A DNA stretch of 33,410 nt from Nemertoderma westbladi. Its lineage: Eukaryota > Animalia > Xenacoelomorpha. The notes under the pieces are model-generated. The model ran no database searches. It worked only from the letters and a program-made list of their open reading frames with translations, and was not told the DNA's origin. Location of the stretch: positions 1 through 33,410 of the forward strand of contig JAUCBJ010003854.1 of the NCBI GenBank assembly GCA_032718475.1, read 5' to 3'. This document shows, in pieces, positions 9,983 to 33,410 of this stretch. Position numbers and translations under genes: made by a program. Positions within the stretch are counted from its first letter, which is position 1. Each line of letters begins with the position of its first letter.

Positions 9983-10000
9983 TGCTTAAAAATGACAATT

Positions 10001-10064
10001 AGTTGCCGTAAATTGCGGTTAGGTAGTTGCGGTAAATTGCGGTTAGTTGCGGTAAATTGCGGTT
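10001..10064. repeat. Three tandem copies of ~20-bp AGTTGCGGTAAATTGCGGTT
   Basis: Direct reading, copies at 10001, 10025 and 10045. Confidence 0.85.
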
Positions 10065-10177
10065 TTTAGTAAGCCTAGGACCCGCACTGTCTTACTACAA
10101 CGTTGTCCAGTTGTCTGGTTGCTGGGTTGTACCGTACCGGTACTGCAGTACTGCAGTACTGCCACACTAAATAAATA

Positions 10178-11386
10178 ATGTTGCGATTATTCCGAATGGA
10201 CATTAATTCTCGTACACGTAGCGACGTAATTTCTTCCCGCCGATACGCGAAAAGCAGCCCCAGTAAACAACAGGCATCCTCTGCTACAATAGGTAAACTA
10301 TTGGGAGCCGGTCTGCTGACAGGGGGTGTCGTGTTGAGTCTCGGAGAATTCTACGACTACTACTACGGTGCAGAAGGTTATTACTTTCCCAGAGGAACAT
10401 GGGAAAACCCTTATTTACCTCTACAAGGGGCAGAAAACCCTTTTAAACAAATAACTGGTAAATTCCCGTGGACCGGAAACACCGACGATTTACAAAGAGA
10501 AAATAACGTCGCCGATTTACCTAAACTTCGAATAAAAAGACAAATTGTTGAAAAGTCTAAAAATCAGTTGCAAAATGAGTTGTCAGTTGAGGCTGATCCG
10601 GAACCGGTTTGCCCTGTTTGCCAAGTCACCGACGAGGGGGAAAAATCAGTGAAAATTGAAAGAATTCCGGAGGAAATCGATCCTAAAGAACCTGAAGTTT
10701 CTAAGGAGAAGGTTTATCGTACCGGGGCCGAGTTACTGGCAGAGGAGGAAACCGCTGTCAGGATGGAACGAGAGATTATAGAACTGCAAGAGTTGACGCA
10801 GCTGGAGGAGTTGGGAGAGCGGATGAGGGAATTACGGGTAGCTATGGTAACGGGTTTGCGTGGAAGCGAGTTGCTGTGCGAGACAATAGAGAACCAGACA
10901 GGGAAACTGAAGGAGGTTCAATTGGCGGCGGATGGCAGGGAGAAGTCGAATAAATGGGGGTCGTTGCTGTCCGCAGCTAATCGGGAAACGGAGTTGTTGC
11001 GACGGTATGAGGTGGATGAACACGAGGTTAAAGCTAAACTTGAGATGTTGAAGGCCGTTATCGATAGTAAATGCAACGTGTTGGTGGGAGAACCCGCTAA
11101 GAAAGAGTTGGATAAGTACAGGCTGGAGGTTGATGCTGTTATTAAGGAAGTAGAAGTTCGTAGCGATGAGGTTAATGGGAGGCGGAAAGTGTTGCTCGAG
11201 TCGATGAAATGTTTGGCAACCGAGATGGGCGCCGATGGCATCGAAGATAAACTAGTGGAAGCGTTCGGGAAGGAAAAGGTGTTTCTTATGAGGGAAATCG
11301 GTAGGTTACTGGATGCAGAAACGGATAAAAGGCACAACCAACTTATAGAGGATCTAAAGGAGGCGTATAAGAACCGGATGGAAGAG
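10178..11386 (+). CDS. MIC60: Exon 1 (403 codons) of a Mic60/mitofilin-like mitochondrial inner-membrane protein
   Basis: Arg/Ser-rich presequence with RRY|A, then TIGKLLGAGLLTGGVV hydrophobic segment recalling IMMT TTGKIAGAGLLFVGG. Long Glu/Lys coiled coil, EKSNKW motif. Ends in a phase-0 consensus donor GAG|GTAAGT. Homology is recalled, not searched. Confidence 0.78.
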
Positions 11387-14300
11387 GTAAGTTTATAAGA
11401 ACCGGAAGAGGTAAGTTTATAAGAATCGGAAGATGTAAGTTTATAAGGATCGGAAGAGGTAAGTTTATAAGAACCGGAAGAGGTAAGTTTATAAGAATCG
11501 GAAGATGTAAGTTTATAAGGATCGGAAGAGGTAAGTTTATAGAACCGGAAGAGGTAAGTTTATAAGAACCGGAAGAGGTAAGTTTATAAGAACCGGAAGA
11601 TGTAAGTTTATAAGGATCGGAAGAGGTAAGTTTATAAGAACCGGAAGAGGTAAGTTTATAAGAACCGGATGGAAGAGGTAAGTTTATAAGAACCGGAAGA
11701 TGTAAGTTTATAAGAACCGGAAGATGTAAGTTTTTAAGAACTGGAAGAGGTAAGTTTATAAGGATCGGAAGAGGTAAGTTTATAAGGATCGGAAGAGGTA
11801 AGTTTATAAGAACCGGAAGAGGTAAGTTTATAAGAACCGGAAGATGTAAGTTTTTAAGAACTGGAAGATGTAAGTTTATAAGGATCGGAAGATGTAAGTT
11901 TATAAGAACCGGAAGAGGTGAGTTTATAAGGATCGGAAGATGTAAGTTTATAACAACCGGAAGAGGTGAGTTTATAAGAACCGGAATAGGTAAGTTTATA
12001 AGAATCGGATGGAAGAGGTAAGTTTATAAGAACCGGACGAGGTAAGTTTATAAGGATCGGAAGAGGTAAGTTTATAAGAACCGGAATAGGTAAGTTTATA
12101 AGAACCGGATGAGGTAAGTTTATAAGAACCGGAAGAGGTAAGTTTATAAGAACCGGAAGAGGTAAGTTTATAAGAACCGGAAGAGGTAAGTTTATAAGAA
12201 CCGGAAGATGTAAGTTTATAAGAACCGGAAGATGTAAGTTTATAAGAACCGGACGAGGTAAGTTTATAAGGATCGGAAGAGGTAAGTTTATAAGAACCGG
12301 ATGGAAGAGGTAAGTTTATAAGAACCGGAAGATGTAAGTTTATAAGAACCGGACGAGGTAAGTTTATAAGAACCGGATGGAAGAGGTAAGTTTATAAGAA
12401 CCGGACGAGGTAAGTTTATAAGAACCGGAAGATGTAAGTTTATAAGAACCGGACGATGTAAGTTTATAAGAACCGGACTAGGTAAGTTTATAAGAACCGG
12501 AAGAGGTAAGTTTATAAGAACTGGAAGATGTAAGTTTATAAGAACCGGAAGATGTAAGTTTATAAGAACCGGACGAGGTAAGTTTATAAGGATCGGAAGA
12601 GGTAAGTTTATAAGAACCGGAAGAGGTAAGTTTATAAGAATCGGAAGATGTAAGTTTATAAGAACCGGAAGATGTAAGTTTATAAGAACCGGACGAGGTA
12701 AGTTTATAAGGATCGGAAGAGGTAAGTTTATAAGAACCGGAAGAGGTAAGTTTATAAGAATCGGAAGATGTAAGTTTATAAGAACCGGAAGATGTAAGTT
12801 TATAAGAACCGAACGAGGTAAGTTTATAAGAACCGGAAGAGGTAAGTTTATAAGAACCGGAAGAGGTAAGTTTATAAGAACCGGAATAGGTAAGTTTATA
12901 AGAACCGGAAGATGTAAGTTTATAAGAACCGGACGAGGTAAGTTTATAAGGATCGGAAGAGGTAAGTTTATAAGAACCGGAAGATGTAAGTTTATAAGAA
13001 CCGGAAGATGTAAGTTTATAAGAACCGGACGAGGTAAGTTTATAAGGATCGGAAGAGGTAAGTTTATAAGAACCGGAAGAGGTAAGTTTATAAGAATCGG
13101 AAGATGTAAGTTTATAAGAACCGGAAGATGTAAGTTTATAAGAACCGGACGAGGTAAGTTTATAAGGATCGGAAGAGGTAAGTTTATAAGAACCGGATGG
13201 AAGAGGTAAGTTTATAAGAACCGGATGTGAGGTAAGTTTATAAGAACCGGAAGATGTAAGTTTTTAAGAACTGGAAGATGTAAGTTTATAAGGATCGGAA
13301 GATGTAAGTTTATAAGAACCGGACGAGGTAAGTTTATAAGAACCGGAAGAGGTGAGTTTATAAGAACCGGACGAGGTAAGTTTATAAGAACCGGATGGAA
13401 GAGGTAAGTTTATAAGAACCGGATGGAAGAGGTAAGTTTATAAGAACCGGATGGAAGAGGTAAGTTTATAAGAACCGGATGTGAGGTAAGTTTATAAGAA
13501 CCGGAAGATGTAAGTTTTTAAGAACTGGAAGATGTAAGTTTATAAGAACCGGAAGAGGTAAGTTTATAAGAACCGGACGAGGTAAGTTTATAAGGATCGG
13601 AAGAGGTAAGTTTATAAGAACCGGAAGAGGTAAGTTTATAAGAACCGGACGAGGTAAGTTTATAAGAACCGGATGGAAGAGGTAAGTTTATAAGAACCGG
13701 ATGGAAGAGGTAAGTTTATAAGAACCGGACGAGGTAAGTTTATAAGAACCGGAAGAGGTGAGTTTATAAGAACCGGACGAGGTAAGTTTATAAGAACCGG
13801 ATGGAAGAGGTAAGTTTATAAGAACCGGATGGAAGAGGTAAGTTTATAAGAACCGGACGAGGTAAGTTTATAAGAACCGGATGGAAGAGGTAAGTTTATA
13901 AGAACCGGATGGAAGAGGTAAGTTTATAAGAACCGGACGAGGTAAGTTTATAAGAACCGGATGGAAGAGGTAAGTTTATAAGAACCGGATGGAAGAGGTA
14001 AGTTTATAAGAACCGGACGAGGTAAGTTTATAAGAACCGGAAGAGGTGAGTTTATAAGAACCGGACGAGGTAAGTTTATAAGAACCGGATGGAAGAGGTA
14101 AGTTTATAAGAACCGGATGGAAGAGGTAAGTTTATAAGAACCGGATGGAAGAGGTAAGTTTATAAGAACCGGATGTGAGGTAAGTTTATAAGAACCGGAA
14201 GATGTAAGTTTTTAAGAACTGGAAGATGTAAGTTTATAAGAACCGGAAGAGGTAAGTTTATAAGAACCGGACGAGGTAAGTTTATAAGGATCGGAAGAGG

Positions 14301-17300
14301 TAAGTTTATAAGAACCGGAAGAGGTAAGTTTATAAGAATCGGAAGATGTAAGATTATAAGAACCGGAAGAGGTAAGTTTATAAGAACCGGACGATGTAAG
14401 TTTATAAGAACCGGACGAGGTAAGTTTATAAGAACCGGAAGAGGTAAGTTTATAAGAACCGGACGATGTAAGTTTATAAGAACCGGACGAGGTAAGTTTA
14501 TAAGGATCGGAAGAGGTAAGTTTATAAGAACCGGATGGAAGAGGTAAGTTTATAAGAACCGGATGTGAGGTAAGTTTATAAGAACCGGAAGATGTAAGTT
14601 TTTAAGAACTGGAAGATGTAAGTTTATAAGAACCGGAAGAGGTGAGTTTATAAGAACCGGACGAGGTAAGTTTATAAGAACCGGATGGAAGAGGTAAGTT
14701 TATAAGAACCGGATGGAAGAGGTAAGTTTATAAGAACCGGATGGAAGAGGTAAGTTTATAAGAACCGGATGTGAGGTAAGTTTATAAGAACCGGAAGATG
14801 TAAGTTTTTAAGAACTGGAAGATGTAAGTTTATAAGAACCGGAAGAGGTAAGTTTATAAGAACCGGACGAGGTAAGTTTATAAGGATCGGAAGAGGTAAG
14901 TTTATAAGAACCGGAAGAGGTAAGTTTATAAGAATCGGAAGATGTAAGATTATAAGAACCGGAAGAGGTAAGTTTATAAGAACCGGACGATGTAAGTTTA
15001 TAAGAACCGGACGAGGTAAGTTTATAAGAACCGGAAGAGGTAAGTTTATAAGAACCGGACGATGTAAGTTTATAAGAACCGGACGAGGTAAGTTTATAAG
15101 GATCGGAAGAGGTAAGTTTATAAGAACCGGAAGATGTAAGTTTATAAGAACCGGAAGATGTAAGTTTATAAGAACCGGAAGATGCAAGTTTATAAGAACC
15201 GGATGTGAGGTAAGTTTATAAGAACCGGAAGAGGTAAGTTTATAAGAACCGGAAGATGTAAGTTTATAAGAACTGGATGGAAGAGGTAAGTTTATAAGGA
15301 TCGGAAGAGGTAAGTTTATAAGAACCGGAAGAGGTAAGTTTATAAGGATCGGAAGAGGTAAGTTTATAAGAACCGGACGAGGTAAGTTTATAAGGATCGG
15401 AAGAGGTAAGTTTATAAGAACCGGAAGAGGTAAGTTTATAAGAACCGGACGAGGTAAGTTTATAAGGATCGGAAGAGGTAAGTTTATAAGAACCGGAAGA
15501 GGTAAGTTTATAAGAACCGGACGAGGTAAGTTTATAAGGATCGGAAGAGGTAAGTTTATAAGGATCGGAAGAGGTAAGTTTATAAGAACCGGAAGAGGTA
15601 AGTTTATAAGGATCGGAAGAGGTAAGTTTATAAGAACCGGAAGAGGTAAGTTTATAAGGATCGGAAGAGGTAAGTTTATAAGAACCGGACGAGGTAAGTT
15701 TATAAGAACCGGAAGAGGTAAGTTTATAAGAACCGGACGAGGTAAGTTTATAAGGATCGGAAGAGGTAAGTTTATAAGAACCGGAAGAGGTAAGTTTATA
15801 AGAACCGGACGAGGTAAGTTTATAAGGATCGGAAGAGGTAAGTTTATAAGAACCGGAAGAGGTAAGTTTATAAGAACCGGACGAGGTAAGTTTATAAGGA
15901 TCGGAAGAGGTAAGTTTATAAGGATCGGAAGAGGTAAGTTTATAAGAACCGGACGAGGTAAGTTTATAAGGATCGGAAGAGGTAAGTTTATAAGGATCGG
16001 AAGAGGTAAGTTTATAAGAACCGGAAGAGGTAAGTTTATAAGGATCGGAAGAGGTAAGTTTATAAGAACCGGACGAGGTAAGTTTATAAGGATCGGAAGA
16101 GGTAAGTTTATAAGAACCGGAAGAGGTAAGTTTATAAGAACCGGACGAGGTAAGTTTATAAGGATCGGAAGAGGTAAGTTTATAAGAACCGGAAGAGGTA
16201 AGTTTATAAGAACCGGACGAGGTAAGTTTATAAGGATCGGAAGAGGTAAGTTTATAAGAACCGGATGGAAGAGGTAAGTTTATAAGAACCGGATGTGAGG
16301 TAAGTTTATAAGAACCGGAAGATGTAAGTTTATAAGAACCGGACGAGGTAAGTTTATAAGGATCGGAAGAGGTAAGTTTATAAGGATCGGAAGAGGTAAG
16401 TTTATAAGAACCGGAAGAGGTAAGTTTATAAGGATCGGAAGAGGTAAGTTTATAAGAACCGGACGAGGTAAGTTTATAAGGATCGGAAGAGGTAAGTTTA
16501 TAAGAACCGGAAGAGGTAAGTTTATAAGAACCGGACGAGGTAAGTTTATAAGGATCGGAAGAGGTAAGTTTATAAGGATCGGAAGAGGTAAGTTTATAAG
16601 AACCGGAAGAGGTAAGTTTATAAGGATCGGAAGAGGTAAGTTTATAAGAACCGGACGAGGTAAGTTTATAAGGATCGGAAGAGGTAAGTTTATAAGAACC
16701 GGAAGAGGTAAGTTTATAAGAACCGGACGAGGTAAGTTTATAAGGATCGGAAGAGGTAAGTTTATAAGAACCGGAAGAGGTAAGTTTATAAGAACCGGAC
16801 GAGGTAAGTTTATAAGGATCGGAAGAGGTAAGTTTATAAGAACCGGACGAGGTAAGTTTATAAGGATCGGAAGAGGTAAGTTTATAAGGATCGGAAGAGG
16901 TAAGTTTATAAGGATCGGAAGAGGTAAGTTTATAAGAACCGGAAGAGGTAAGTTTATAAGGATCGGAAGAGGTAAGTTTATAAGAACCGGACGAGGTAAG
17001 TTTATAAGGATCGGAAGAGGTAAGTTTATAAGAACCGGAAGAGGTAAGTTTATAAGAACCGGACGAGGTAAGTTTATAAGGATCGGAAGAGGTAAGTTTA
17101 TAAGAACCGGAAGAGGTAAGTTTATAAGAACCGGACGAGGTAAGTTTATAAGGATCGGAAGAGGTAAGTTTATAAGAACCGGATGGAAGAGGTAAGTTTA
17201 TAAGAACCGGATGTGAGGTAAGTTTATAAGAACCGGAAGATGTAAGTTTTTAAGAACTGGAAGATGTAAGTTTATAAGAACCGGAAGAGGTGAGTTTATA

Positions 17301-20300
17301 AGAACCGGACGAGGTAAGTTTATAAGAACCGGATGGAAGAGGTAAGTTTATAAGAACCGGATGGAAGAGGTAAGTTTATAAGAACCGGATGGAAGAGGTA
17401 AGTTTATAAGAACCGGATGTGAGGTAAGTTTATAAGAACCGGATGGAAGAGGTAAGTTTATAAGAACCGGATGTGAGGTAAGTTTATAAGAACCGGAAGA
17501 TGTAAGTTTTTAAGAACTGGAAGATGTAAGTTTATAAGAACCGGAAGAGGTGAGTTTATAAGAACCGGACGAGGTAAGTTTATAAGAACCGGATGGAAGA
17601 GGTAAGTTTATAAGAACCGGATGGAAGAGGTAAGTTTATAAGAACCGGATGGAAGAGGTAAGTTTATAACAACCGGATGTGAGGTAAGTTTATAAGAACC
17701 GGAAGATGTAAGTTTTTAAGAACTGGAAGATGTAAGTTTATAAGAACCGGAAGAGGTAAGTTTATAAGAACCGGACGAGGTAAGTTTATAAGGATCGGAA
17801 GAGGTAAGTTTATAAGAACCGGATCGGAAGAGGTAAATTTATAAGAATCGGAAGATGTAAGATTATAAGAACCGGATGGAAGAGGTAAGTTTATAAGAAC
17901 CGGATGGAAGAGGTAAGTTTATAAGAACCGGATGGAAGAGGTAAGTTTATAAGAACCGGATGTGAGGTAAGTTTATAAGAACCGGAAGATGTAAGTTTTT
18001 AAGAACTGGAAGATGTAAGTTTATAAGAACCGGAAGAGGTAAGTTTATAAGAACCGGACGAGGTAAGTTTATAAGGATCGGAAGAGGTAAGTTTATAAGA
18101 ACCGGATCGGAAGAGGTAAATTTATAAGAATCGGAAGATGTAAGATTATAAGAACCGGAAGATGTAAGATTATAAGAACTGGAAGATGTAAGTTTATAAG
18201 AACCGGACGAGGTAAGTTTATAAGAACCGGAAGAGGTAAGTTTATAAGAACCGGACGATGTAAGTTTATAAGAACCGGAAGATGTAAGATTATAAGAACT
18301 GGAAGATGTAAGTTTATAAGAACCGGACGAGGTAAGTTTATAAGAACCGGAAGAGGTAAGTTTATAAGAACCGGACGATGTAAGTTTATAAGAACCGGAC
18401 GAGGTAAGTTTATAAGGATCGGAAGAGGTAAGTTTATAAGAACCGGAAGATGTAAGTTTATAAGAACCGGAAGATGTAAGTTTATAAGAACCGGACGAGG
18501 TAAGTTTATAGAACCGGAAGAGGTAAGTTTATAAGAACCGGACGAGGTAAGTTTATAAGGATCGGAAGATGTAAGTTTATAAGAACCGGACGAGGTAAGT
18601 TTATAAGAACCGGAAGATGTAAGTTTATAAGAACCGGACGAGGTAAGTTTATAAGGATCGGAAGAGGTAAGTTTATAAGGATCGGAAGAGGTAAGTTTAT
18701 AAGAACCGGACGAGGTAAGTTTATAAGAACCGGAAGAGGTAAGTTTATAAGAACCGGAAGATGTAAGTTTATAAGAACCGGAAGATGTAAGTTTATAAGA
18801 ACCGGACGAGGTAAGTTTATAAGAACCGGAAGATGTAAGTTTATAAGAACCGGACGAGGTAAGTTTATAAGAACCGGAAGATGTAAGTTTATAAGGATCG
18901 GAAGAGGTAAGTTTATAAGGATCGGAAGAGGTAAGTTTATAAGAACCGGACGAGGTAAGTTTATAAGAACCGGAAGAGGTAAGTTTATAAGAACCGGAAG
19001 ATGTAAGTTTATAAGGATCGGAAGAGGTAAGTTTATAAGAACCGGAAGATGTAAGTTTATAAGAACCGGACGAGGTAAGTTTATAAGGATCGGAAGAGGT
19101 AAGTTTATAAGAACCGGAAGAGGTAAGTTTATAAGAACCGGACGAGGTAAGTTTATAAGAATCGGATGGAAGATGTAAGTTTATAAGAATCGGAAGATGT
19201 AAGTTTATAAGAACCGGAAGATGTAAGTTTATAAGAACCGGAAGATGTAAGTTTATAAGGATCGGAAGATGTAAGTTTATAAGAACCGGATGGAAGAGGT
19301 AAGTTTATAAGAACCGGACGAGGTAAGTTTATAAGAACCGGACGAGGTAAGTTTATAAGAACCGGACGAGGTAAGTTTATAAGGATCGGAAGAGGTAAGT
19401 TTATAAGAACCGGAAGAGGTAAGTTTATAAGAACCGGACGAGGTAAGTTTATAAGAACCGTAAGATGTAAGTTTATAAGAATCGGAAGATGTAAGTTTAT
19501 AAGAACCGGAAGATGTAAGTTTATAAGAACCGGAAGATGTAAGTTTATAAGAACCGGACGAGGTAAGTTTATAAGGATCGGAAGAGGTAAGTTTATAAGA
19601 ACCGGAAGAGGTAAGTTTATAAGAATCGGAAGAGGTAAGTTTATAAGGATCGGAAGAGGTAAGTTTATAAGGATCGGAAGAGGTAAGTTTATAAGAACCG
19701 GACGATGTAAGTTTATAAGAACCGGAAGATGTAAGTTTATAAGAACCGGACGAGGTAAGTTTATAAGAACCGGAAGATGTAAGTTTATAAGAACCGGACG
19801 AGGTAAGTTTATAAGGATCGGAAGAGGTAAGTTTATAAGGATCGGAAGAGGTAAGTTTATAAGGATCGGAAGAGGTAAGTTTATAAGGATCGGAAGAGGT
19901 AAGTTTATAAGAACCGGACGATGTAAGTTTATAAGAACCGGAAGATGTAAGTTTATAAGAACCGGACGAGGTAAGTTTATAAGAACCGGAAGATGTAAGT
20001 TTATAAGAACCGGACGAGGTAAGTTTATAAGGATCGGAAGAGGTAAGTTTATAAGGATCGGAAGAGGTAAGTTTATAAGAACCGGAAGAGGTAAGTTTAT
20101 AAGAACCGGAAGATGTAAGTTTATAAGAACCGGAAGAGGTAAGTTTATAAGAACCGGAAGAGGTAAGTTTATAAGAACCGGAAGAGGTAAGTTTATAAGA
20201 ACCGGAAGAGGTAAGTTTATAAGAACCGGAAGATGTAAGTTTATAAGAACCGGAAGATGTAAGTTTTTAAGAACCGGACGAGGTAAGTTTATAAGGATCG

Positions 20301-23300
20301 GAAGAGGTAAGTTTATAAGGATCGGAAGAGGTAAGTTTATAAGAACCGGAAGAGGTAAGTTTATAAGAACCGGAAGATGTAAGTTTATAAGAACCGGAAG
20401 AGGTAAGTTTATAAGAACCGGATGAGGTAAGTTTATAAGAACCGGACGAGGTAAGTTTATAAGAACCGGAAGATGTAAGTTTATAAGAACCGGACGAGGT
20501 AAGTTTATAAGGATCGGAAGAGGTAAGTTTATAAGGATCGGAAGAGGTAAGTTTATAAGAACCGGACGAGGTAAGTTTATAAGAACCGGAAGAGGTAAGT
20601 TTATAAGAACCGGAAGATGTAAGTTTATAAGGATCGGAAGAGGTAAGTTTATAAGAACCGGAAGATGTAAGTTTATAAGAACCGGACGAGGTAAGTTTAT
20701 AAGGATCGGAAGAGGTAAGTTTATAAGAACCGGAAGAGGTAAGTTTATAAGAACCGGACGAGGTAAGTTTATAAGAACCGTAAGATGTAAGTTTATAAGA
20801 ATCGGAAGATGTAAGTTTATAAGAACCGGAAGATGTAAGTTTATAAGAACCGGAAGATGTAAGTTTATAAGAACCGGACGAGGTAAGTTTATAAGGATCG
20901 GAAGAGGTAAGTTTATAAGAACCGGAAGAGGTAAGTTTATAAGAACCGGACGAGGTAAGTTTATAAGAACCGTAAGATGTAAGTTTATAAGAATCGGAAG
21001 ATGTAAGTTTATAAGAACCGGAAGATGTAAGTTTATAAGAACCGGAAGATGTAAGTTTATAAGAACCGGACGAGGTAAGTTTATAAGAACCGTAAGATGT
21101 AAGTTTATAAGAATCGGAAGATGTAAGTTTATAAGAACCGGAAGATGTAAGTTTATAAGAACCGGAAGATGTAAGTTTATAAGGATCGGAAGAGGTAAGT
21201 TTATAAGAACCGGAAGAGGTAAGTTTATAAGAATCGGAAGATGTAAGTTTATAAGAACCGGAAGATGTAAGTTTATAAGAACCGGAAGATGTAAGTTTAT
21301 AAGAACCGGACGAGGTAAGTTTATAAGGATCGGAAGAGGTAAGTTTATAAGGATCGGAAGAGGTAAGTTTATAAGAACCGGAAGAGGTAAGTTTATAAGA
21401 ACCGGACGAGGTAAGTTTATAAGGATCGGAAGAGGTAAGTTTATAAGAACCGGAAGATGTAAGTTTATAAGAACCGGACGAGGTAAGTTTATAAGGATCG
21501 GAAGAGGTAAGTTTATAAGAACCGGAAGAGGTAAGTTTATAAGAATCGGAAGATGTAAGTTTATAAGAACCGGAAGATGTAAGTTTATAAGAACCGGAAG
21601 ATGTAAGTTTATAAGAACCGGACGAGGTAAGTTTATAAGGATCGGAAGAGGTAAGTTTATAAGAACCGGAAGAGGTAAGTTTATAAGAATCGGAAGATGT
21701 AAGTTTATAAGAACCGGAAGATGTAAGTTTATAAGAACCGGACGAGGTAAGTTTATAAGGATCGGAAGAGGTAAGTTTATAAGGATCGGAAGAGGTAAGT
21801 TTATAAGAACCGGAAGAGGTAAGTTTATAAGAACCGGAAGATGTAAGTTTATAAGAACCGGACGAGGTAAGTTTATAAGGATCGGAAGAGGTAAGTTTAT
21901 AAGAACCGGAAGATGTAAGTTTATAAGAACCGGACGAGGTAAGTTTATAAGGATCGGAAGAGGTAAGTTTATAAGAACCGGAAGAGGTAAGTTTATAAGA
22001 ATCGGAAGATGTAAGTTTATAAGAACCGGATGAGGTAAGTTTATAAGAACCGGAAGAGGTAAGTTTATAAGAACCGGAAGAGGTAAGTTTATAGAACCGG
22101 AAGATGTAAGTTTATAAGAACCGGACGAGGTAAGTTTATAAGAACCGGAAGATGTAAGTTTATAAGAACCGGAAGATGTAAGTTTATAAGAACCGGACGA
22201 GGTAAGTTTATAAGGATCGGAAGAGGTAAGTTTATAAGGATCGGAAGAGGTAAGTTTATAAGAACCGGAAGAGGTAAGTTTATAAGAATCGGAAGATGTA
22301 AGTTTATAAGAACCGGAAGATGTAAGTTTATAAGAACCGGACGATGTAAGTTTATAAGAACCGGACGAGGTAAGTTTATAAGGATCGGAAGAGGTAAGTT
22401 TATAAGAACCGGATGGAAGAGGTAAGTTTATAAGAACCGGAAGATGTAAGTTTATAAGAACCGGACGAGGTAAGTTTTTAAGAACTGGAAGATGTAAGTT
22501 TATAAGAACCGGATGTGAGGTAAGTTTATAAGAACCGGAAGATGTAAGTTTTTAAGAACTGGAAGATGTAAGTTTATAAGAACCGGAAGAGGTGAGTTTA
22601 TAAGAACCGGACGAGGTAAGTTTATAAGAACCGGATGGAAGAGGTAAGTTTATAAGAACCGGATGTGAGGTAAGTTTATAAGAACCGGAAGATGTAAGTT
22701 TTTAAGAACTGGAAGATGTAAGTTTATAAGGATCGGAAGATGTAAGTTTATAACAACCGGAAGAGGTGAGTTTATAAGAACCGGAATAGGTAAGTTTATA
22801 AGAATCGGATGGAAGAGGTAAGTTTATAAGAACCGGATGGAAGAGGTAAGTTTATAACAACCGGAAGAGGTGAGTTTATAAGAACCGGAATAGGTAAGTT
22901 TATAAGAATCGGATGGAAGAGGTAAGTTTATAAGAACCGGATGGAAGAGGTAAGTTTATAAGAACCGGATGTGAGGTAAGTTTATAAGAACCGGAAGATG
23001 TAAGTTTTTAAGAACTGGAAGATGTAAGTTTATAAGAACCGGAAGAGGTGAGTTTATAAGAACCGGACGAGGTAAGTTTATAAGAACCGGATGGAAGAGG
23101 TAAGTTTATAAGAACCGGATGTGAGGTAAGTTTATAAGAACCGGAAGATGTAAGTTTTTAAGAACTGGAAGATGTAAGTTTATAAGGATCGGAAGATGTA
23201 AGTTTATAACAACCGGAAGAGGTGAGTTTATAAGAACCGGAATAGGTAAGTTTATAAGAATCGGATGGAAGAGGTAAGTTTATAAGAACCGGATGGAAGA

Positions 23301-26300
23301 GGTAAGTTTATAACAACCGGAAGAGGTGAGTTTATAAGAACCGGAATAGGTAAGTTTATAAGAATCGGATGGAAGAGGTAAGTTTATAAGAACCGGATGG
23401 AAGATGTAAGTTTATAAGAACCGGATGGAAGAGGTAAGTTTATAACAACCGGAAGAGGTGAGTTTATAAGAACCGGAATAGGTAAGTTTATAAGAATCGG
23501 ATGGAAGAGGTAAGTTTATAAGAATCGGATGGAAGAGGTAAGTTTATAAGAACCGGAAGATGTAAGTTTATAAGAACCGGATGGAAGATGTAAGTTTATA
23601 AGAACCGGATAGAAGAGGTAAGTTTATAAGAATCGGAAGATGTAAGTTTTTTAAAAAACGGAAGAGGTGAGTTTATAAGAACCGGAATAGGTAAGTTTAT
23701 AAGAATCGGATGGAAGAGGTAAGTTTATAAGAACCGGATGGAAGAGGTAAGTTTATAACAACCGGAAGAGGTGAGTTTATAAGAACCGGAAGAGGTAAGT
23801 TTATAAGAACCGGATGGAAGAGGTAAGTTTATAAGAACCGGAAGATGTGAGTTCATATGAACCGGAAGAGGTAAGTTTATAAGAACCGGATGGAAGAGGT
23901 AAGTTTATAAGAACCGGAAGATGTGAGTTCATATGAACCGGAAGAGGTAAGTTTATAAGAACCGGAATAGGTAAGTTTATAAGAACCGGATGGAAGAGGT
24001 AAGTTTATAAGGATCGGAAGAGGTAAGTTTATAAGAACCGGAAGAGGTAAGTTTATAAGAACCGGACGAGGTAAGTTTATAAGGATCGGAAGAGGTAAGT
24101 TTATAAGAACCGGAAGATGTAAGTTTATAAGAACCGGACGAGGTAAGTTTATAAGGATCGGAAGAGGTAAGTTTATAAGAACCGGAAGAGGTAAGTTTAT
24201 AAGAATCGGAAGATGTAAGTTTATAAGAACCGGAAGATGTAAGTTTATAAGAACCGGAAGATGTAAGTTTATAAGAACCGGACGAGGTAAGTTTATAAGG
24301 ATCGGAAGAGGTAAGTTTATAAGAACCGGAAGAGGTAAGTTTATAAGAATCGGAAGATGTAAGTTTATAAGAACCGGAAGATGTAAGTTTATAAGAACCG
24401 GACGAGGTAAGTTTATAAGGATCGGAAGAGGTAAGTTTATAAGGATCGGAAGAGGTAAGTTTATAAGAACCGGAAGAGGTAAGTTTATAAGAACCGGAAG
24501 ATGTAAGTTTATAAGAACCGGACGAGGTAAGTTTATAAGGATCGGAAGAGGTAAGTTTATAAGAACCGGAAGATGTAAGTTTATAAGAACCGGACGAGGT
24601 AAGTTTATAAGGATCGGAAGAGGTAAGTTTATAAGAACCGGAAGAGGTAAGTTTATAAGAATCGGAAGATGTAAGTTTATAAGAACCGGATGAGGTAAGT
24701 TTATAAGAACCGGAAGAGGTAAGTTTATAAGAACCGGAAGAGGTAAGTTTATAGAACCGGAAGATGTAAGTTTATAAGAACCGGAAGATGTAAGATTATA
24801 AGAACCGGAAGATGTAAGTTTATAAGAACCGGAAGAGGTAAGTTTATAAGAACCGGATGAGGTAAGTTTATAAGAACCGGAAGATGTAAGTTTATAAGAA
24901 CCGGACGAGGTAAGTTTATAAGAACCGGAAGAGGTAAGTTTATAAGAAACGGATGAGGTAAGTTTATAAGAACCGGATGAGGTAAGTTTATAAGAACCGG
25001 AAGATGTAAGTTTATAAGAACCGGACGAGGTAAGTTTATAAGAACCGGAAGAGGTAAGTTTATAGAACCGGAAGATGTAAGTTTATAAGAACCGGAAGAT
25101 GTAAGATTATAAGAACCGGAAGATGTAAGTTTATAAGAACCGGAAGAGGTAAGTTTATAAGAACCGGAAGATGCAAGTTTATAAGAAACGGATGAGGTAA
25201 GTTTATAAGAACCGGATGAGGTAAGTTTATAAGAACCGGATGAGGTAAGTTTATAAGAACCGGAAGAGGTAAGTTTATAAGAACCGGAAGAGGTAAGTTT
25301 ATAAGAACCGGAAGATGTAAGTTTATAAGAACCGGAAGATGCAAGTTTATAAGAAACGGATGAGGTAAGTTTATAAGAACCGGATGAGGTAAGTTTATAA
25401 GAACCGGATGAGGTAAGTTTATAAGAAACGGATGAGGTAAGTTTATAAGAACCGGATGAGGTAAGTTTATAAGAACCGGATGAGGTAAGTTTATAAGAAC
25501 CGGAAGAGGTAAGTTTATAAGAACCGGAAGATGTAAGTTTATAAGAACCGGACGAGGTAAGTTTATAAGGATCGGAAGAGGTAAGTTTATAAGAACCGGA
25601 AGATGTAAGTTTATAAGAACCGGACGAGGTAAGTTTATAAGGATCGGAAGAGGTAAGTTTATAAGAACCGGAAGAGGTAAGTTTATAAGAATCGGAAGAT
25701 GTAAGTTTATAAGAACCGGATGAGGTAAGTTTATAAGAACCGGAAGAGGTAAGTTTATAAGAACCGGAAGAGGTAAGTTTATAGAACCGGAAGATGTAAG
25801 TTTATAAGAACCGGAAGATGTAAGATTATAAGAACCGGAAGATGTAAGTTTATAAGAACCGGAAGAGGTAAGTTTATAAGAACCGGAAGATGCAAGTTTA
25901 TAAGAAACGGATGAGGTAAGTTTATAAGAACCGGATGAGGTAAGTTTATAAGAACCGGATGAGGTAAGTTTATAAGAACCGGAAGAGGTAAGTTTATAAG
26001 AACCGGAAGAGGTAAGTTTATAGAACCGGAAGATGTAAGTTTATAAGAACCGGAAGATGTAAGATTATAAGAACCGGAAGATGTAAGTTTATAAGAACCG
26101 GACGAGGTAAGTTTATAAGGATCGGAAGAGGTAAGTTTATAAGGATCGGAAGAGGTAAGTTTATAAGAACCGGAAGAGGTAAGTTTATAAGAATCGGAAG
26201 ATGTAAGTTTATAAGAACCGGAAGATGTAAGTTTATAAGAACCGGACGAGGTAAGTTTATAAGGATCGGAAGAGGTAAGTTTATAAGAACCGGATGGAAG

Positions 26301-29300
26301 AGGTAAGTTTATAAGAACCGGAAGATGTAAGTTTATAAGAACCGGACGAGGTAAGTTTTTAAGAACTGGAAGATGTAAGTTTATAAGAACCGGAAGAGGT
26401 AAGTTTATAAGAACCGGACGAGGTAAGTTTATAAGGATCGGAAGAGGTAAGTTTATAAGAACCGGAAGAGGTAAGTTTATAAGAATCGGAAGATGTAAGA
26501 TTATAAGAACCGGAAGAGGTAAGTTTATAAGAACCGGAAGAGGTAAGTTTATAAGAACCGGATGTGAGGTAAGTTTATAAGAACCGGAAGATGTAAGTTT
26601 TTAAGAACTGGAAGATGTAAGTTTATAAGAACCGAACGAGGTAAGTTTATAGAACCGGAAGAGGTAAGTTTATAAGAACTGGAAGAGGTAAGTTTATAAG
26701 AACCGGATGGAAGAGGTAAGTTTATAAGAACCGGATGTGAGGTAAGTTTATAAGAACCGGAAGATGTAAGTTTTTAAGAACTGGAAGATGTAAGTTTATA
26801 AGGATCGGAAGATGTAAGTTTATAACAACCGGAAGAGGTGAGTTTATAAGAACCGGAATAGGTAAGTTTATAAGAATCGGATGGAAGAGGTAAGTTTATA
26901 AGAACCGGATGGAAGAGGTAAGTTTATAACAACCGGAAGAGGTGAGTTTATAAGAACCGGAATAGGTAAGTTTATAAGAATCGGATGGAAGAGGTAAGTT
27001 TATAAGAACCGGATGGAAGAGGTAAGTTTATAAGAACCGGATGTGAGGTAAGTTTATAAGAACCGGAAGATGTAAGTTTTTAAGAACTGGAAGATGTAAG
27101 TTTATAAGGATCGGAAGATGTAAGTTTATAACAACCGGAAGAGGTGAGTTTATAAGAACCGGAATAGGTAAGTTTATAAGAATCGGATGGAAGAGGTAAG
27201 TTTATAAGAACCGGATCGGAAGAGGTAAGTTTATAAGAACCGGATGGAAGAGGTAAGTTTATAAGAACCGGATGGAAGAGGTAAGTTTATAACAACCGGA
27301 AGAGGTGAGTTTATAAGAACCGGAATAGGTAAGTTTATAAGAATCGGATGGAAGAGGTAAGTTTATAAGAACCGGATGGAAGATGTAAGTTTATAAGAAC
27401 CGGATGGAAGAGGTAAGTTTATAACAACCGGAAGAGGTGAGTTTATAAGAACCGGAATAGGTAAGTTTATAAGAATCGGATGGAAGAGGTAAGTTTATAA
27501 GAACCGGATGGAAGAGGTAAGTTTATAAGAATCGGATGGAAGAGGTAAGTTTATAAGAACCGGAAGATGTAAGTTTATAAGAACCGGATGGAAGATGTAA
27601 GTTTATAAGAACCGGATAGAAGAGGTAAGTTTATAAGAATCGGAAGATGTAAGTTTTTTAAAAAACGGAAGAGGTGAGTTTATAAGAACCGGAATAGGTA
27701 AGTTTATAAGAATCGGATGGAAGAGGTAAGTTTATAAGAACCGGATGGAAGAGGTAAGTTTATAACAACCGGAAGAGGTGAGTTTATAAGAACCGGAATA
27801 GGTAAGTTTATAAGAACCGGATGGAAGAGGTAAGTTTATAAGAACCGGAAGATGTGAGTTCATATGAACCGGAAGAGGTAAGTTTATAAGAACCGGAATA
27901 GGTAAGTTTATAAGAACCGGATGGAAGAGGTAAGTTTATAAGAACCGGATGGAAGATGTAAGTTTATAAGAACCGGAAGATGTAAGTTTATAAGAACCGG
28001 AAGATATAAGTTTATAAGAACTGGAAGATGTAAGTTTATAAGAATCGGAAGATGTAAGTTTATAAGAACCGTAAGATGTAAGTTTATAAGAATCGGAAGA
28101 TGTAAGTTTATAAGAACCGGAAGATGTAAGTTTATAAGAACCGGAAGATGTAAGTTTATAAGAACCGGAATAGGTAAGTTTATAAGAACCGGATGGAAGA
28201 GGTAAGTTTATAAGAACCGGATCGGAAGAGGTAAGTTTATAAGAACCGGAAGAGGTAAGTTTATAAGAACCGGAATAGGTAAGTTTATAAGAACCGGATG
28301 GAAGAGGTAAGTTTATAGAACCGGAAGATGTAAGTTTATAAGAACCGGAAGAGGTAAGTTTATAGAACCGAACGAGGTAAGTTTATAAGAACCGGATGGA
28401 AGAGGTAAGTTTATAGAACCGGAAGAGGTGAGTTTATAAGAACCGGAATAGGTAAGTTTATAAGAACCGGATGGAAGAGGTAAGTTTATAACAACCGGAA
28501 GAGGTGCGTTTATAAGAACCGGATGAGGTAAGTTTATAGAACCGAACGAGGTAAGTTTATAAGAACCGGAAGAGGTAAGTTTATAAGAACCGGAAGAGGT
28601 GAGTTTATAAGAACCGGAATAGGTAAGTTTATAAGAACCGGATGGAAGAGGTAAGTTTATAGAACCGGAAGATGTAAGTTTATAAGAACCGGAAGAGGTA
28701 AGTTTATAGAACCGAACGAGGTAAGTTTATAAGAACCGGATGGAAGAGGTAAGTTTATAGAACCGGAAGAGGTGAGTTTATAAGAACCGGAATAGGTAAG
28801 TTTATAAGAACCGGATGGAAGAGGTAAGTTTATAGAACCGGAAGATGTAAGTTTATAAGAACCGGAAGAGGTAAGTTTATAGAACCGAACGAGGTAAGTT
28901 TATAAGAACCGGATGGAAGAGGTAAGTTTATAGAACCGGAAGATGTAAGTTTATAAGAACCGGAAGAGGTAAGTTTATAGAACCGAACGAGGTAAGTTTA
29001 TAAGAACCGGATGGAAGAGGTAAGTTCATAGAACCGGAAGAGGTGAGTTTATAAGAACCGGAAGATGTAAGTTTATAAGAACCGGATCGGAAGAGGTAAG
29101 TTTATAAGAACCGGAAGATGTAAGTTTATAAGAACCGGAAGAGGTAAGTTTATAAGAACCGGATGAGGTAAGTTTATAAGAACCGGAAGATGTAAGTTTA
29201 TAAGAACCGGATGGAAGAGGTAAGTTTATAGAACCGGAAGATGTAAGTTTATAAGAACCGGAAGAGGTAAGTTTATAGAACCGAACGAGGTAAGTTTATA

Positions 29301-31687
29301 AGAACCGGAAGAGGTAAGTTTATAAGAACCGGAATAGGTAAGTTTATAAGAACCGGAAGAGGTAAGTTTATAGAACCGGAAGAGGTAAGTTTATAAGAAC
29401 CGGAAGAGGTGAGTTTATAAGAACCGGAATAGGTAAGTTTATAAGAACCGGATGGAAGAGGTAAGTTTATAGAACCGGAAGATGTAAGTTTATAAGAACC
29501 GGAAGAGGTAAGTTTATAGAACCGAACGAGGTAAGTTTATAAGAACCGGAAGAGGTAAGTTTATAAGAACCGGAATAGGTAAGTTTATAAGAACCGGAAG
29601 AGGTAAGTTTATAGAACCGGAAGAGGTAAGTTTATAAGAACCGGAAGAGGTGAGTTTATAAGAACCGGAATAGGTAAGTTTATAAGAACCGGATGGAAGA
29701 GGTAAGTTTATAGAACCGGAAGATGTAAGTTTATAGAACCGGAAGAGGTAAGTTTATAAGAACCGGAAGAGGTGAGTTTATAAGAACCGGAATAGGTAAG
29801 TTTATAAGAACCGGATGGAAGAGGTAAGTTTATAGAACCGGAAGATGTAAGTTTATAAGAACCGGAAGAGGTGAGTTTATAAGAACCGGAATAGGTAAGT
29901 TTATAAGAACCGGATGGAAGAGGTAAGTTTATAGAACCGGAAGATGTAAGTTTATAAGAACCGGAAGAGGTAAGTTTATAGAACCGAACGAGGTAAGTTT
30001 ATAAGAACCGGAAGAGGTAAGTTTATAAGAACCGGAAGAGGTGAGTTTATAAGAACCGGAATAGGTAAGTTTATAAGAACCGGATGGAAGAGGTAAGTTT
30101 ATAGAACCGGAAGATGTAAGTTTATAAGAACCGGAAGAGGTAAGTTTATAGAACCGAACGAGGTAAGTTTATAAGAACCGAACGAGGTAAGTTTATAAGA
30201 ACCGGAAGAGGTAAGTTTATAGAACCGGAAGAGGTAAGTTTATAAGAACCGGAAGAGGTGAGTTTATAAGAACCGGAATAGGTAAGTTTATAAGAACCGG
30301 ATGGAAGAGGTAAGTTTATAGAACCGGAAGATGTAAGTTTATAAGAACCGGAAGAGGTAAGTTTATAGAACCGAACGAGGTAAGTTTATAAGAACCGGAA
30401 GAGGTAAGTTTATAAGAACCGGAAGAGGTGAGTTTATAAGAACCGGAATAGGTAAGTTTATAAGAACCGGATGGAAGAGGTAAGTTTATAGAACCGGAAG
30501 ATGTAAGTTTATAAGAACCGGATGAGGTAAGTTTATAGAACCGAACGAGGTAAGTTTATAAGAACCGGAAGAGGTAAGTTTATAAGAACCGGAAGAGGTG
30601 AGTTTATAAGAACCGGAATAGGTAAGTTTATAAGAACCGGAAGAGGTAAGTTTATAAGAACCGGATGGAAGAGGTAAATTTATAAGAACCGGAAGATGTA
30701 AGTTTATAAGAACCGGAAGAGGTAAGTTTATAAGAACCGGAAGAGGTAAATTTATAAGAACCGGAAGATGTAAGTTTATAAGAACCGGAAGATGTAAGTT
30801 TATAAGAACCGGACGAGGTAAGTTTATAAGGATCGGAAGAGGTAAATTTATAGAACCGGAAGAGGTAAGTTTATAAGAACCGGACGAGGTAAGTTTATAA
30901 GGATCGGAAGAGGTAAATTTATAAGAACCGGATCGGAAGAGGTAAATTTATAAGAACCGGAAGATGTAAGTTTATAAGAACCGGAAGAGGTAAGTTTATA
31001 AGAACCGAACGAGGTAAGTTTATAAGAACCGGATGGAAGAGGTAAATTTATAAGAACCGGATCGGAAGAGGTAAATTTATAAGAACCGGAAGATGTAAGT
31101 TTATAAGAACCGGACGAGGTAAGTTTATAAGAACCGGATAGGTAAGTTTATAAGAACCGGATCGGAAGAGGTAAATTTATAAGAACCGGAAGATGTAAGT
31201 TTATAAGAACCGGACGAGGTAAGTTATAAGAACCGGATAGGTAAGTTTATAAGAACCGGATGGAAGAGGTAAATTTATAAGAACCGGATCGGAAGAGGTA
31301 AGTTTATAACAACCGGAAGAGGTAAGTTTTTAAGAACTGGAAGATGTAAGTTTATAACAACCGGAAGAGGTGAGTTTATAAGAACCGGAATAGGTAAGTT
31401 TATAAGAATCGGATGGAAGAGGTAAGTTTATAAGAACCGGATGGAAGAGGTAAGTTTATAAGAACCGGAAGAGGTAAGTTTATAAGAACCGGAAGAGGTG
31501 AGTTCATATGAACCGGAAGAGGTAAGTTTATAAGAACCGGAATAGGTAAGTTTATAAGAATCGGATGGAAGAGGTAAGTTTATAAGAACCGGATGGAAGA
31601 GGTAAGTTTATAAGAACCGGAAGAGGTAAGTTTATAAGAACTGGATGGAAGAGGTAAGTTTATAAGAACCGGACTAGGTAAGTTTAT
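11366..31687 (+). repeat. ~20.3-kb tandem array of 23-28-bp units (main 24-mer TATAAGAACCGGAAGAGGTAAGTT), roughly 800-850 copies, derived from the exon 1/intron 1 junction
   Basis: First unit (28 bp, 11366-11393) is the last 7 codons of the exon plus 7 nt of intron. Copy number is estimated as length divided by unit size. Confidence 0.97.
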
Positions 31688-32769
31688 GTTGGAGTTTGAG
31701 CACAGCTTGCCTCATTTCATAGCACTCCGTGTCGAACCAAGGTTTGGAGTGTCGAGTTGATCAGCGCTTTGGGGGTGCGGAGTCCTTAATCGCTGTGGTT
31801 AAAGACTCGTACGCACAATTAATATCCCCGTCTTGAAGCTTGAGAGCGGCAATATTGAGCCTAGCATCTGCCCCCAGCCTTAGAAGATCGACTTTCCTTG
31901 TTGGTTTAGGCGCGTTAATATCTTGTGGTACTGGAACCATTGACTCCCATGAAGCTTTTATCGGCACATGTTTGCGCAGAGGAACTTTTAACAGATCGAC
32001 CGATTTAGCCACGTTGTTGCTGTAGATTAAATCGATCACGCTATTGCCGTTATGACAGTAGTAAATGGGCTTGCTGGAATCGGTTTGTAAAGTGACACCT
32101 TGGTCTGCCATTATGGTTTCCAGAGGAACCCTTCTTTGGTGGTCAGTAATGTCCATTCTGGTGTTAAAATCTCCACCAATGAACACCGGACCGGACTCTG
32201 GGATAATGTCTAGCATCGATAGGACTCCTACGATGAAGTCCTCAAGGTCGAGATCTGGGGAAAAGTAACAACATGCGAAAGTTCCAATTAGACAGCTGAT
32301 AACAACATAATGTTTCTCGGATACCAGTAACCTTGGGTTTAGGGTTTAGGCATGGTTTTACCGCAATGATGATTCCACCAGCTGGTCTTCCCAGCCCCGA
32401 ATTTTTGACAGCGAGTGACTCAAAAACATAGTACCCGTGTAAACTGGTGCTTACGGTCGCCATTGTTTCGGTTAATAGGATAACGTCCGGAGCCGTTAGA
32501 ATATCCGATTGGATAAGTGACAATACCGAGACAATTCCTTCTACGTTCCATAGAAGCATTGAAGTTAGAGTGGAAGGGGAGCCAGATGCTTCTGGAGGGT
32601 GAGTTTCAACCGGAGAGACATGAGGAAAACAAGCAGCAGTGGTAACAGGGGTGGTTATCAGTCCCCCGACTGATAACCCGACTGAGTCGAAGCTGGCATA
32701 TCCGCGCGCGGCCTTCTTCGACCACCATAGCGAACGCGTTCGTCCTCTGCCAGCTGTTAATTTCTTATT
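31688..32769 (-). mobile_element. Internal fragment of a non-LTR retrotransposon: possible ORF1 end plus ORF2 APE endonuclease and linker; no RT or tail
   Basis: MLLWNVEG, DVILLTET, GRPAGGI, [frameshift ~32310] CYFSP, IGGDFN, YYCHNGNSVIDL, KHVPI, then a stop and KPWFDTEC. Confidence 0.9.
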
Positions 32770-32920
32770 GATGTAAGATGTAAGTTTATAAGAACCGGCA
32801 GATGTAAGTTTATAAGAACCGGCAGATAGGTAAGTTTATAAGAACCGGAAGAGGCAAGTTTATAAGAACCGGATGAGGTAAGTTTATATGAACCGTAATA
32901 GATGAGTAAATCTGTAAGAA
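32770..32920 (+). repeat. Terminal ~6 increasingly degenerate units of the splice-donor satellite
   Basis: GTAAGTTTATAAGAACCGG units resume after the LINE fragment and decay to GAGTAAATCTGTAAGAAC. Confidence 0.88.
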
Positions 32921-32996
32921 CTTGTCCTATAAAATATATTTTTAGGGAAGGTCGTAAAGTAGACGAGCTTAACGAGCAGTTATTATTATTTAACAG

Positions 32997-33173
32997 TTTG
33001 AGAAGCAATCCACATCTAAACTTCACCAACAACTTCACGATATAACGACGGCGCATAACAGATTACTAAAAGACGAACTGGAGACACAGAAGGAAGATTA
33101 CGAACATAAACTCCGACAGACTTTAGTTCAACAAAAAGATGCTTTGGAGAGTCAGTACCACAACGAGTTGCAG
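32997..33173 (+). CDS. MIC60: Exon 2 (59 codons) of the Mic60-like gene; not in the ORF track
   Basis: FEKQSTSKLHQQLHDITTAHNRLLKDELETQKEDYEHKLRQTLVQQKDALESQYHNELQ, resembling mitofilin QLRRQAAAHTDHLRDVL..Q. Acceptor CAG at 32994-32996. Probable donor CAG|GTTTGG at 33174, followed by AT-rich intron-like DNA. Confidence 0.75.
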
Positions 33174-33410
33174 GTTTGGATATCCGGGAACGCAAATATT
33201 ATATTATATATAAAGTCGTGACAAATTCGGGGGACAATATGCCCTGGGTAATATATTGCTAATTAAATAAGCTCGTTTCTTACTAACAACGCATTCAACT
33301 CACTCAACTCATTCACTTGTTATATACATAAATAATAACAGATTTTGTATATCTAAGTCCGTTTTATTTATTTACAAATATTTATTTATTAAAAATATTA
33401 AATTATTTTG

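Follow-up and report, generated by a model that had tools for sequence, protein, structure and literature searches.

In the window, the whole 33,410-nt stretch of Nemertoderma westbladi DNA analysed here, the first intron of a probable MIC60/mitofilin gene is filled by a 20-kb minisatellite that reiterates the exon/intron junction of the same gene. Since it is the first donor that is spliced in the assembled transcripts, this array is likely tolerated rather than selected, and a single 28-nt duplication across the donor followed by ordinary repeat turnover seems the probable course of its history.

Host gene and intron structure

Exon 1 (10045..11386, plus strand; 5' end approximate) is delimited by an open reading frame, with an ATG at 10178 and 403 codons up to the donor, and by contigs of sequencing run X5 that cover 10045-11386 and bear a non-genomic 24-nt tail at 10045. 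It was present in five of eight sequencing runs from three studies, none of them recorded as RNA, and run X8 had no contig placed on the locus. Intron 1 (11387..32996, plus strand) measures 21,610 nt, has phase 0 and GT..AG borders, and rests on contigs of runs X5 and X2 that join exon 1 to exon 2. The latter (32997..33173, plus strand) contributes 59 codons in frame with exon 1, giving a stop-free joined frame of 462 amino acids, and is followed by another intron.

We consider the host gene a probable MIC60/mitofilin gene, although no Pfam cut-off was reached. Exon 2 alone matched the Pfam Mitofilin profile at positions 343-398 of 614 (E 0.09 and 0.013; 12.1-14.9 bits vs a curated cut-off of 27.4), exon 1 had no Mitofilin match in Pfam, and the C-terminal domain of the protein falls outside the window. 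A predicted model (mean pLDDT 51) consists of an N-terminal membrane helix, a linker, a helical bundle and a coiled coil, in that order. The top two Foldseek matches were the helical bundle of MIC60 (9qwr; E 0.015 and 0.026), and VIA superposed model residues 183-355 on chain residues 198-368 of MIC60 (Z 10.8, rmsd 3.6, 162 aligned), a score tied with unrelated generic helical bundles. Protein homologue searches returned none for either exon, and PDB sequence searches gave nothing useful. A set of 1.84 billion representatives yielded a single match, which we discarded as a translated repeat. BEL integrase hits, at most ~41% identical over their full length, narrowed the taxon to an animal, probably an invertebrate.

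Donor use in transcripts

Two cDNA-like runs reach the acceptor, X5 (study P3) and X2 (study P1, possibly a source sample), and in both the unique exon end at 11355-11386 directly precedes 32997. In X5, a single contig with a depth of 2505.7 departs from exon 1 at 11386 into exon 2, and contigs of both runs show 0 differences to exon 2 and continue into a third exon. Both runs are labelled 'DNA?', and the precise skipping of two introns suggests that they are cDNA. Because these contigs join 11386 to the in-frame exon at 32997, the first donor is the one used in assembled transcripts, which drop rare isoforms, and the junction proposed from sequence alone is indeed a working donor. In X5, neither a downstream donor nor the array appeared in any contig (depth 0 at 11408-11440 and 32771-32888), which is not evidence as contigs lose rare forms, and X2 held one 78-nt repeat contig (depth 7.18 vs 49.4 for the mRNA), i.e. 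repeat sequence is present in that library. Products of other donors would moreover be targets for decay, and minor use of such donors could thus escape the contigs.

How the first donor is selected might have been explained by RNA structure, as the donor 10-mer is self-complementary via G-U pairs (z -2.65; 2 of 200 shuffles). We rejected masking by structure because the self-duplex is weak (-2.0 to -4.2 kcal/mol vs -10.7 for U1) and pairing of the first donor lies little below that of the median one (0.61 vs 0.78 and 0.74 vs 0.85). Splicing may favour cap-proximal donors, a preference for which the literature searched yielded no direct source. The first donor may win as it is the first out of the polymerase and the only one with an exon upstream, comparable to the 5'-to-3' scanning in human F7, and nonsense-mediated decay might clear rare products of the other donors. 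An in-frame TAA three codons past the first donor (11396..11398, plus strand) ends the frame for every downstream donor, so that 824 of the 825 GT donors, all but the first, lead to a stop after residue 406.

This premature stop would also suit length-tuned unproductive splicing, where internal donors are often used, their products are lost to decay and array length sets protein dose. According to the accessible text of PMC1557585, human IFI6 and CBS do make use of their nearest downstream donors, while downstream copies do not compete in F7. With the first donor in the acceptor-covering contigs of both X5 and X2, we regard unproductive splicing as unlikely here.

Organisation of the array

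The main minisatellite (11366..31687, plus strand) was delineated by TRF, motif counts and unit parsing and comprises 826 donor-equivalent positions in 54 unit variants of 22-29 nt with nested higher-order duplications. TRF, run on the window, reported 11380-31687 with period 24, 826.7 copies and 88% matches, which bears out the roughly 800 tandem copies of the gene's own 5' splice site claimed in the sequence-only reading, and the array makes up 94% of intron 1. As also foreseen, the repeat begins inside the exon: the founder unit (28 nt, 11366..11393, plus strand) starts within the reading frame that ends in YKNRMEE at 11386 and unites the last 21 nt of exon 1 with the first 7 nt of the intron, the authentic donor lying at 11386/11387. 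A terminal repeat block of about five units (32771..32895, plus strand; second TRF block 32775-32895, 5 copies) fades out by ~32920 and is more diverged, as three of the four units parsed there do not occur in the main array.

The motif GT[AG]AGT occurs 804 times in 11366-32920 vs 4 times in the remaining 11.9 kb of the window, the 24-nt unit yields 762 matches with up to 3 mismatches vs 0 in 100 shuffles, and a 30-nt unit pattern had 0 matches in metagenome contigs. GT is retained at 825 of 831 donor-equivalent positions. In the main array, the contexts from -3 to +6 are GAG|GTAAGT (516), GAT|GTAAGT (203), GAG|GTGAGT (38), TAG|GTAAGT (38) and others (31), i.e. the 9-mer of the first donor is common to 516 of 826 positions. 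Most units (648 of 825) are 24 nt long, but an exact junction copy is a 28-nt unit (106 units, of which 78 are exact). Nor are the donors all identical, as the sequence-only reading had it: predicted pairing with a U1-type arm (built from the textbook donor consensus) equals that of the first donor, about -10.7 kcal/mol, at 592 of 826 positions, a strong donor approximately every 35 nt across the 20-kb first intron, but GAT|GT units reach only -5.4 kcal/mol.

Most units end in AG, and splicing an internal donor to the acceptor would thus rebuild an AG in front of exon 2, from where a second round starting at the first donor could complete a stepwise removal of the intron. AG precedes 606 of 825 GT donors and the predicted final mRNA is the same as the observed one. 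Recursive splice (ratchet) sites are AG|GT sites preceded by a polypyrimidine tract. The 606 AG|GT sites of the array lack such tracts, the pyrimidine fraction before these AGs having a mean of 0.33 and a maximum of 0.47 vs 0.60 at the real acceptor, which makes stepwise removal very improbable.

Interruption by a LINE fragment and assembly support

The sequence-only reading had drawn the array as one stretch of 11366..32920. Repeats are present at both ends, but a minus-strand internal LINE fragment of 1,085 bp (31686..32770; APE endonuclease region, Pfam Exo_endo_phos_2, E 2.3e-07) breaks it. Loose contig ends of runs X1 and X3 at 31686 and 32770 indicate that copies of this LINE family extend past both ends of the fragment, and run X1 contained another LINE copy with 37 differences and left exon 2 without cover.

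An array length produced by the assembly, or a dispersed satellite that is present here by chance, would be an obvious objection. No spanning long read was seen, and the number of copies does not follow from summed contig depth: in simulations, the ratio lay anywhere between 14 and 1923 according to the length cut-off set for contigs, vs 619-1037 observed. The summed depth ratios of 767-869 in X4 and 1013-1037 in X3 should not be read as copy numbers. Short-read contigs nevertheless support the left edge (X3 contig 10042-11395), the bridge from array over LINE to tail (X3 contig 31654-32805) and the bridge from tail to exon 2. The X3 bridging contigs are shallow (depth 10.9 and 3.4 vs 30.1), which may reflect polymorphism or filtering. 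In a depth calibration with eight contigs, one was unconstrained, one was without a candidate in the window and five had 28-39 candidates and carry little information. The one well-constrained repeat contig, from X3, reached 17.5 times the depth of the exon, and the two candidates for its sequence have 13.3 and 16.7 copies in the window. Moreover, the share of placed contigs that continue into unlike sequence was only 0-0.03 in the DNA runs. We thus consider an artefact or a chance satellite highly unlikely.

Origin and growth of the array

Because no orthologous intron was seen, we infer the origin and direction of the amplification from the array itself. Seeding may have occurred by slippage or repair at a TATA 4-mer that is common to the exon (11366) and to intron position +8, and the commoner 24-nt unit, whose consensus equals the junction unit minus 4 exonic bases, could have arisen through a 4-nt deletion. 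Exact duplications of 32, 20, 17, 16, 16 and 15 units inside the array suggest growth by slippage and unequal exchange, and the diverged units at the far end resemble cluster edges that escape homogenisation in amphioxus. With a unit that equals the exon/intron junction and an array that makes up nearly all of a 21.6-kb intron, the proposed route to intron gigantism by junction amplification is supported.

The reverse direction, where exonisation of an older intronic repeat supplied the donor together with the final seven codons of the exon, would be compatible with the absence of an orthologue to show that YKNRMEE is ancestral. However, these codons lie within a continuous predicted helix (residues 370-402, pLDDT ~75 at its end), the frame continues directly into exon 2 with its match to the Mitofilin profile (below the curated cut-off), and the end of exon 1 corresponds to the minority 28-nt unit and not to the commonest one. 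Exonisation therefore appears hardly plausible.

Possible U1 loading and probable neutrality

The functional roles previously proposed for the array, i.e. U1 sponge, telescripting or timing device, imply a nascent intron that loads hundreds of U1 snRNPs, forms a splicing-factor body, slows transcription and has been selected for it. The array offers 78.6 GT[AG]AGT sites per 2 kb and its 592 strong positions, and the deep mRNA contig of X5 makes many nascent copies plausible. As reported in the available part of bioRxiv 10.64898/2026.03.19.712899, the RNA of chicken LL2R, for which >5 donors per 2 kb are predicted, gathers snRNAs and is slowly transcribed. In the most far-reaching version, the gene would grow its own U1 scaffold, a locus-bound splicing body like LL2R in which the first donor is still chosen out of ~830 and array length tunes timing or dose of the MIC60-like protein.

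Against such a role, the donor core is not under-mutated: the substitution load is 5.1% per nt both there and elsewhere in the unit, and 8 alleles in the 9-nt core vs 12 in the remaining 15 nt show no difference (P=0.82), a comparison with little power given only 20 alleles in a homogenised array. The weakening G>T change at -1 is found in 200 of the 648 24-nt units. Intron 1 contains no AATAAA and one ATTAAA, leaving telescripting little to act on, and the 24-nt spacing probably bars full occupancy. For a timing device, 21 kb is small compared to the megabase introns tied to timing in Drosophila, as far as the accessible text of PMC6508621 describes them. A selected U1 sponge or telescripting function is hence unsupported, as mutations are no rarer in the donor core than in the remainder of the unit and AATAAA is lacking. 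We consider a selected U1 reservoir or timing device quite unlikely, and the self-grown scaffold deserves no higher expectation.

Comparison with known systems

The array shares the hallmarks of junction minisatellites: head-to-tail units in the range of 10-160 bp, a first unit across the authentic boundary, a reiterated donor and a regular mRNA from the first donor. A close human counterpart is the 37-bp VNTR in F7 intron 7, where 5-9 identical donors occur and, according to the available text of Borensztajn et al. 2006 (PMC1557585), only the most upstream one is used. In both cases the first unit spans the exon/intron border and is followed by identical donors; however, the 37-bp unit of F7 includes 4 exonic bases and is present 5-9 times in an internal intron, in contrast to a 24-28-bp unit here that includes 17-21 exonic bases and is present ~830 times over 20 kb of a first intron. 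The same text lists donors reiterated by minisatellites in 10-25 copies for IFI6 (6-16), CBS intron 13, lamin B2 and PDGF, and two nearby downstream pseudo-donors are used too in IFI6 and CBS. In N. westbladi only the first donor appeared in contigs, and the copy number is ~30 times higher than in the human cases covered there.

Amphioxus 'mirage' minisatellites in Adh3, globins, TnC and PGBD5 (PMC3087553, PMC3902484, accessible parts) are another invertebrate example of a tandemly duplicated exon/intron boundary, with units of 10-160 bp, normal splicing and edge units that escape homogenisation. Copies are few there (3 and 6, globin Gb6), compared to ~830 in our array, and of the two systems it is the amphioxus one for which length instability was demonstrated. 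Chicken LL2R, described in the available part of its preprint as a non-coding 160-kb array of 446-bp units with snRNP gathering seen by microscopy, is likewise a transcribed tandem array with donors in excess and few poly(A) signals. Poor pyrimidine tracts also fit this type. In contrast, LL2R does not derive from its own gene's junction and stays unspliced, while the junction-derived array described here sits in an intron spliced out of a coding mRNA; donor density is ~15 times that of LL2R, counted by a different method, and in these sources snRNP gathering is known only for LL2R. Finally, Drosophila Y-loop introns are similarly enlarged almost wholly by tandem repeats, namely megabases of simple satellite that, in the accessible text of PMC6508621, are not splice-junction-derived, compared to 20 kb of a junction-derived unit here.

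In the literature searched, with most subscription journals outside, no junction array of hundreds of donors was described. A splice-junction-linked repeat mechanism, as suggested earlier, does correspond to a real class, but one already published under the names of junction VNTRs and 'mirages', and only the scale is new. Because the assembled transcripts use the first splice signal, the array is probably harmless and a very large case of this known repeat type. It offers an extreme natural test of how a 5' splice site is chosen, with ~590 strong competing donors all nearer to the acceptor and an observed mRNA that uses the first. Furthermore, it shows that an intron whose unique sequence amounts to ~100 nt can reach 21.6 kb by junction amplification alone. 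Local U1 loading is worth considering as LL2R, in the part of the preprint available, is an example of snRNPs gathered by repeat RNA rich in donors, and if such loading held true on the nascent RNA, junction minisatellites would be linked to splicing-factor bodies.

Structure and length of the array

The sequence-only reading had described an intron built from tandem copies of its own 5' splice site, and this array is present as claimed. TRF delimits a main array at 11380-31687 (period 24, 826.7 copies) and a second block of the same repeat at 32775-32895 (5 copies), the motif GT[AG]AGT occurs 804 times in 11366-32920 versus 4 times in the remainder of the window, and near matches to the unit number 762 in the window versus none in 100 shuffles. 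The main array was parsed into 826 donor-equivalent positions; its units fall into 54 variants and measure 24 nt in 648 and 28 nt in 106 of 825 cases. The 28-nt unit reproduces exactly the final 21 bases of the exon and the first 7 of the intron, while the 24-nt consensus misses four of these exonic bases. Altogether 20,301 of the 21,610 bases of intron 1 (11387-32996) are main array, and the acceptor is preceded by 101 bases of unique sequence. On the antisense strand of 11387-32996 there are 790 TATAAA hexamers, which resemble a TATA box as well as a variant poly(A) signal and are probably incidental.

Support for array length comes from short-read contigs and their depth. Contigs of the DNA run X3 back the left edge of the array (10042-11395) and bridge both the array, LINE piece and tail (31654-32805) and the tail and exon 2 (32875-33362). 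Summed repeat depth was 619-1037x exon depth, which decides little given a wide simulated range of 14-1923; one well-constrained contig reached 17.5x exon depth and could correspond to either of two sequences, present 13.3 and 16.7 times in the window. In the DNA runs, 0-3% of placed contig sequence continues into unlike sequence among the matches listed, which fits a single locus.

The two array blocks are separated by 1,085 bp of a minus-strand LINE (31686-32770, borders from contigs; Pfam Exo_endo_phos_2, E 2.3e-07). It is an internal fragment, since family copies in the contigs extend past both ends, and thus lacks the 3' end expected of normal retrotransposition. No target-site duplication was seen at its borders, and either break-repair capture or subsequent deletion is possible. 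Its depth in X3 is one third of exon depth.

Further elements lie upstream of the gene. The end of a broken BEL/Pao retroelement pol (1-2300; Pfam Peptidase_A17, Integrase_H2C2, rve, DUF5641) carries an AT-rich insert near 1221-1335 with a 5-nt direct repeat on both sides and is followed by a 43-bp tandem repeat (2511-2784, TRF). A non-coding element with long inverted arms (5297-6712; 155 nt at 91%, 389 nt at 88%), similar in build to a non-autonomous DNA transposon, interrupts a purine-rich stretch of broken ORF (about 3543-7537) and shows what seems to be an 8-nt target duplication. Of two broken ORFs (3543-4316 and 6635-7057), one looks to the eye like a 3'-5' exonuclease-like domain, for which there was no Pfam match, and the other contains three motifs resembling zinc knuckles (zf-CCHC_4, E 0.012). 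The reverse transcriptase part of a second LINE remnant (8943-9600, minus strand; RVT_1, E 6.3e-06) lies just upstream of the gene.

Host gene and use of the authentic donor

Exon 1 (10045-11386) was found in five of eight listed sequencing runs, none of them RNA by record; two runs (X5 of study P3 and X2 of study P1, possibly the source sample) act as cDNA. One X5 contig (depth 2505.7) follows the genome up to 11386 and then switches to the opening 30 bases of exon 2 (32997-33173). Another begins at 10045, where it carries a non-genomic tail, taken here to be a template-switch adapter. At the acceptor, X5 and X2 contigs carry 11355-11386 directly before exon 2, a segment that includes exon-specific bases; past 33173 the contigs of both runs extend into a third exon. 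Hence the authentic donor (11386/11387) is joined to 32997 across 21,610 nt, supporting the earlier proposal that this junction is used; had the contigs originated from a retrocopy, they would still record the identical splice. This evidence consists of contigs, in which rare isoforms are invisible. A minority X5 contig (depth 555 of 2307) shows two exon 1 differences (10852 and 10863), probably an allele. The apparent transcript start near 10045 falls within a short 10/20-bp tandem repeat (9990-10065) that, judging from contig depth, also occurs elsewhere in the genome.

The exon 1 ORF runs from an ATG at 10178 over 403 codons to 11386. Behind the AG at 32995-32996 this frame stays open for another 59 codons, and the joined exons encode an uninterrupted 462 residues. 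Their product is probably a divergent MIC60/mitofilin, an identity that is likely but short of demonstrated. Sequence searches with the protein returned no true homologue; exon 2 weakly matches positions 343-398 of 614 of the Mitofilin profile (E 0.09 and 0.013, below cut-off). For the low-confidence exon 1 model (pLDDT 51), the best two Foldseek rows are the MIC60 helical bundle (E 0.015 and 0.026), and model residues 183-355 align by VIA on 198-368 of the MIC60 chain with Z 10.8, a score that unrelated bundles tie.

Possible origin, proposed function and probable tolerance

Junction-spanning minisatellites of 5-25 copies have been described in human F7, IFI6, CBS, lamin B2 and PDGF (PMC1557585), and amphioxus 'mirages' are described as duplicated exon/intron borders that leave splicing undisturbed (PMC3087553; PMC3902484). 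Of the defining features of this class, the array shows short tandem units, a first unit across an authentic exon/intron border, a reiterated donor and mRNA made from the first donor, and no junction array of this size was found in the literature searched. The unit begins in the exon with a TATA 4-mer that is repeated at intron position +8, and the first duplication could have been seeded there. The variant map contains exact internal duplications (32, 20, 17, 16, 16 and 15 units), and in the terminal block three of four parsed units are absent from the main array, which is the pattern of minisatellite turnover.

The sequence-only reading had further proposed a U1 sponge, telescripting or timing device. 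The nearest precedent, as far as its preprint describes it, is chicken LL2R, where nascent RNA gathers snRNAs (bioRxiv 10.64898/2026.03.19.712899); LL2R is a non-coding array with >5 predicted donors per 2 kb, whereas the present array is a spliced intron in which a simpler count gives 78.6 donor motifs per 2 kb. Modelled pairing makes passive binding of U1 plausible: 592 of 826 positions should pair as well as the authentic donor and out-pair the real intron 2 donor (-6.9 kcal/mol). The donor core (-3 to +6) is mutated as much as the rest of the unit (per base, 5.1% of copies differ in each), substitution alleles number 8 in its 9 nt versus 12 in 15 nt elsewhere (P=0.82), and the -1 base is weakened in 200 of 648 units. 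There is no sign of selection for donors in this test, which is of low power, and it appears improbable that this coding gene carries a splicing body loaded with U1. Recursive splicing is unlikely since all 606 AG|GT sites in the array are without pyrimidine tracts. The donor 10-mer (11387-11396 and every unit) is self-complementary via G-U pairs (z -2.65), and donors of separate units are predicted to form long interrupted hairpins; as a selector, donor-donor pairing is weak beside U1 pairing and does not single out the authentic donor.

Three things likely make the array tolerable, namely use of the authentic donor, a stop behind the other donors and few poly(A) signals. Splicing from any of the remaining 824 GT donors would include the TAA at 11396 and end the protein at 406 residues. 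Nonsense-mediated decay is an established pathway, and judging from this premature stop it would probably clear such products. With no AATAAA and one ATTAAA, intron 1 offers little to premature cleavage. We regard the array as genuine and verified, a very large instance of a class already described, and Nemertoderma westbladi most likely tolerates it.
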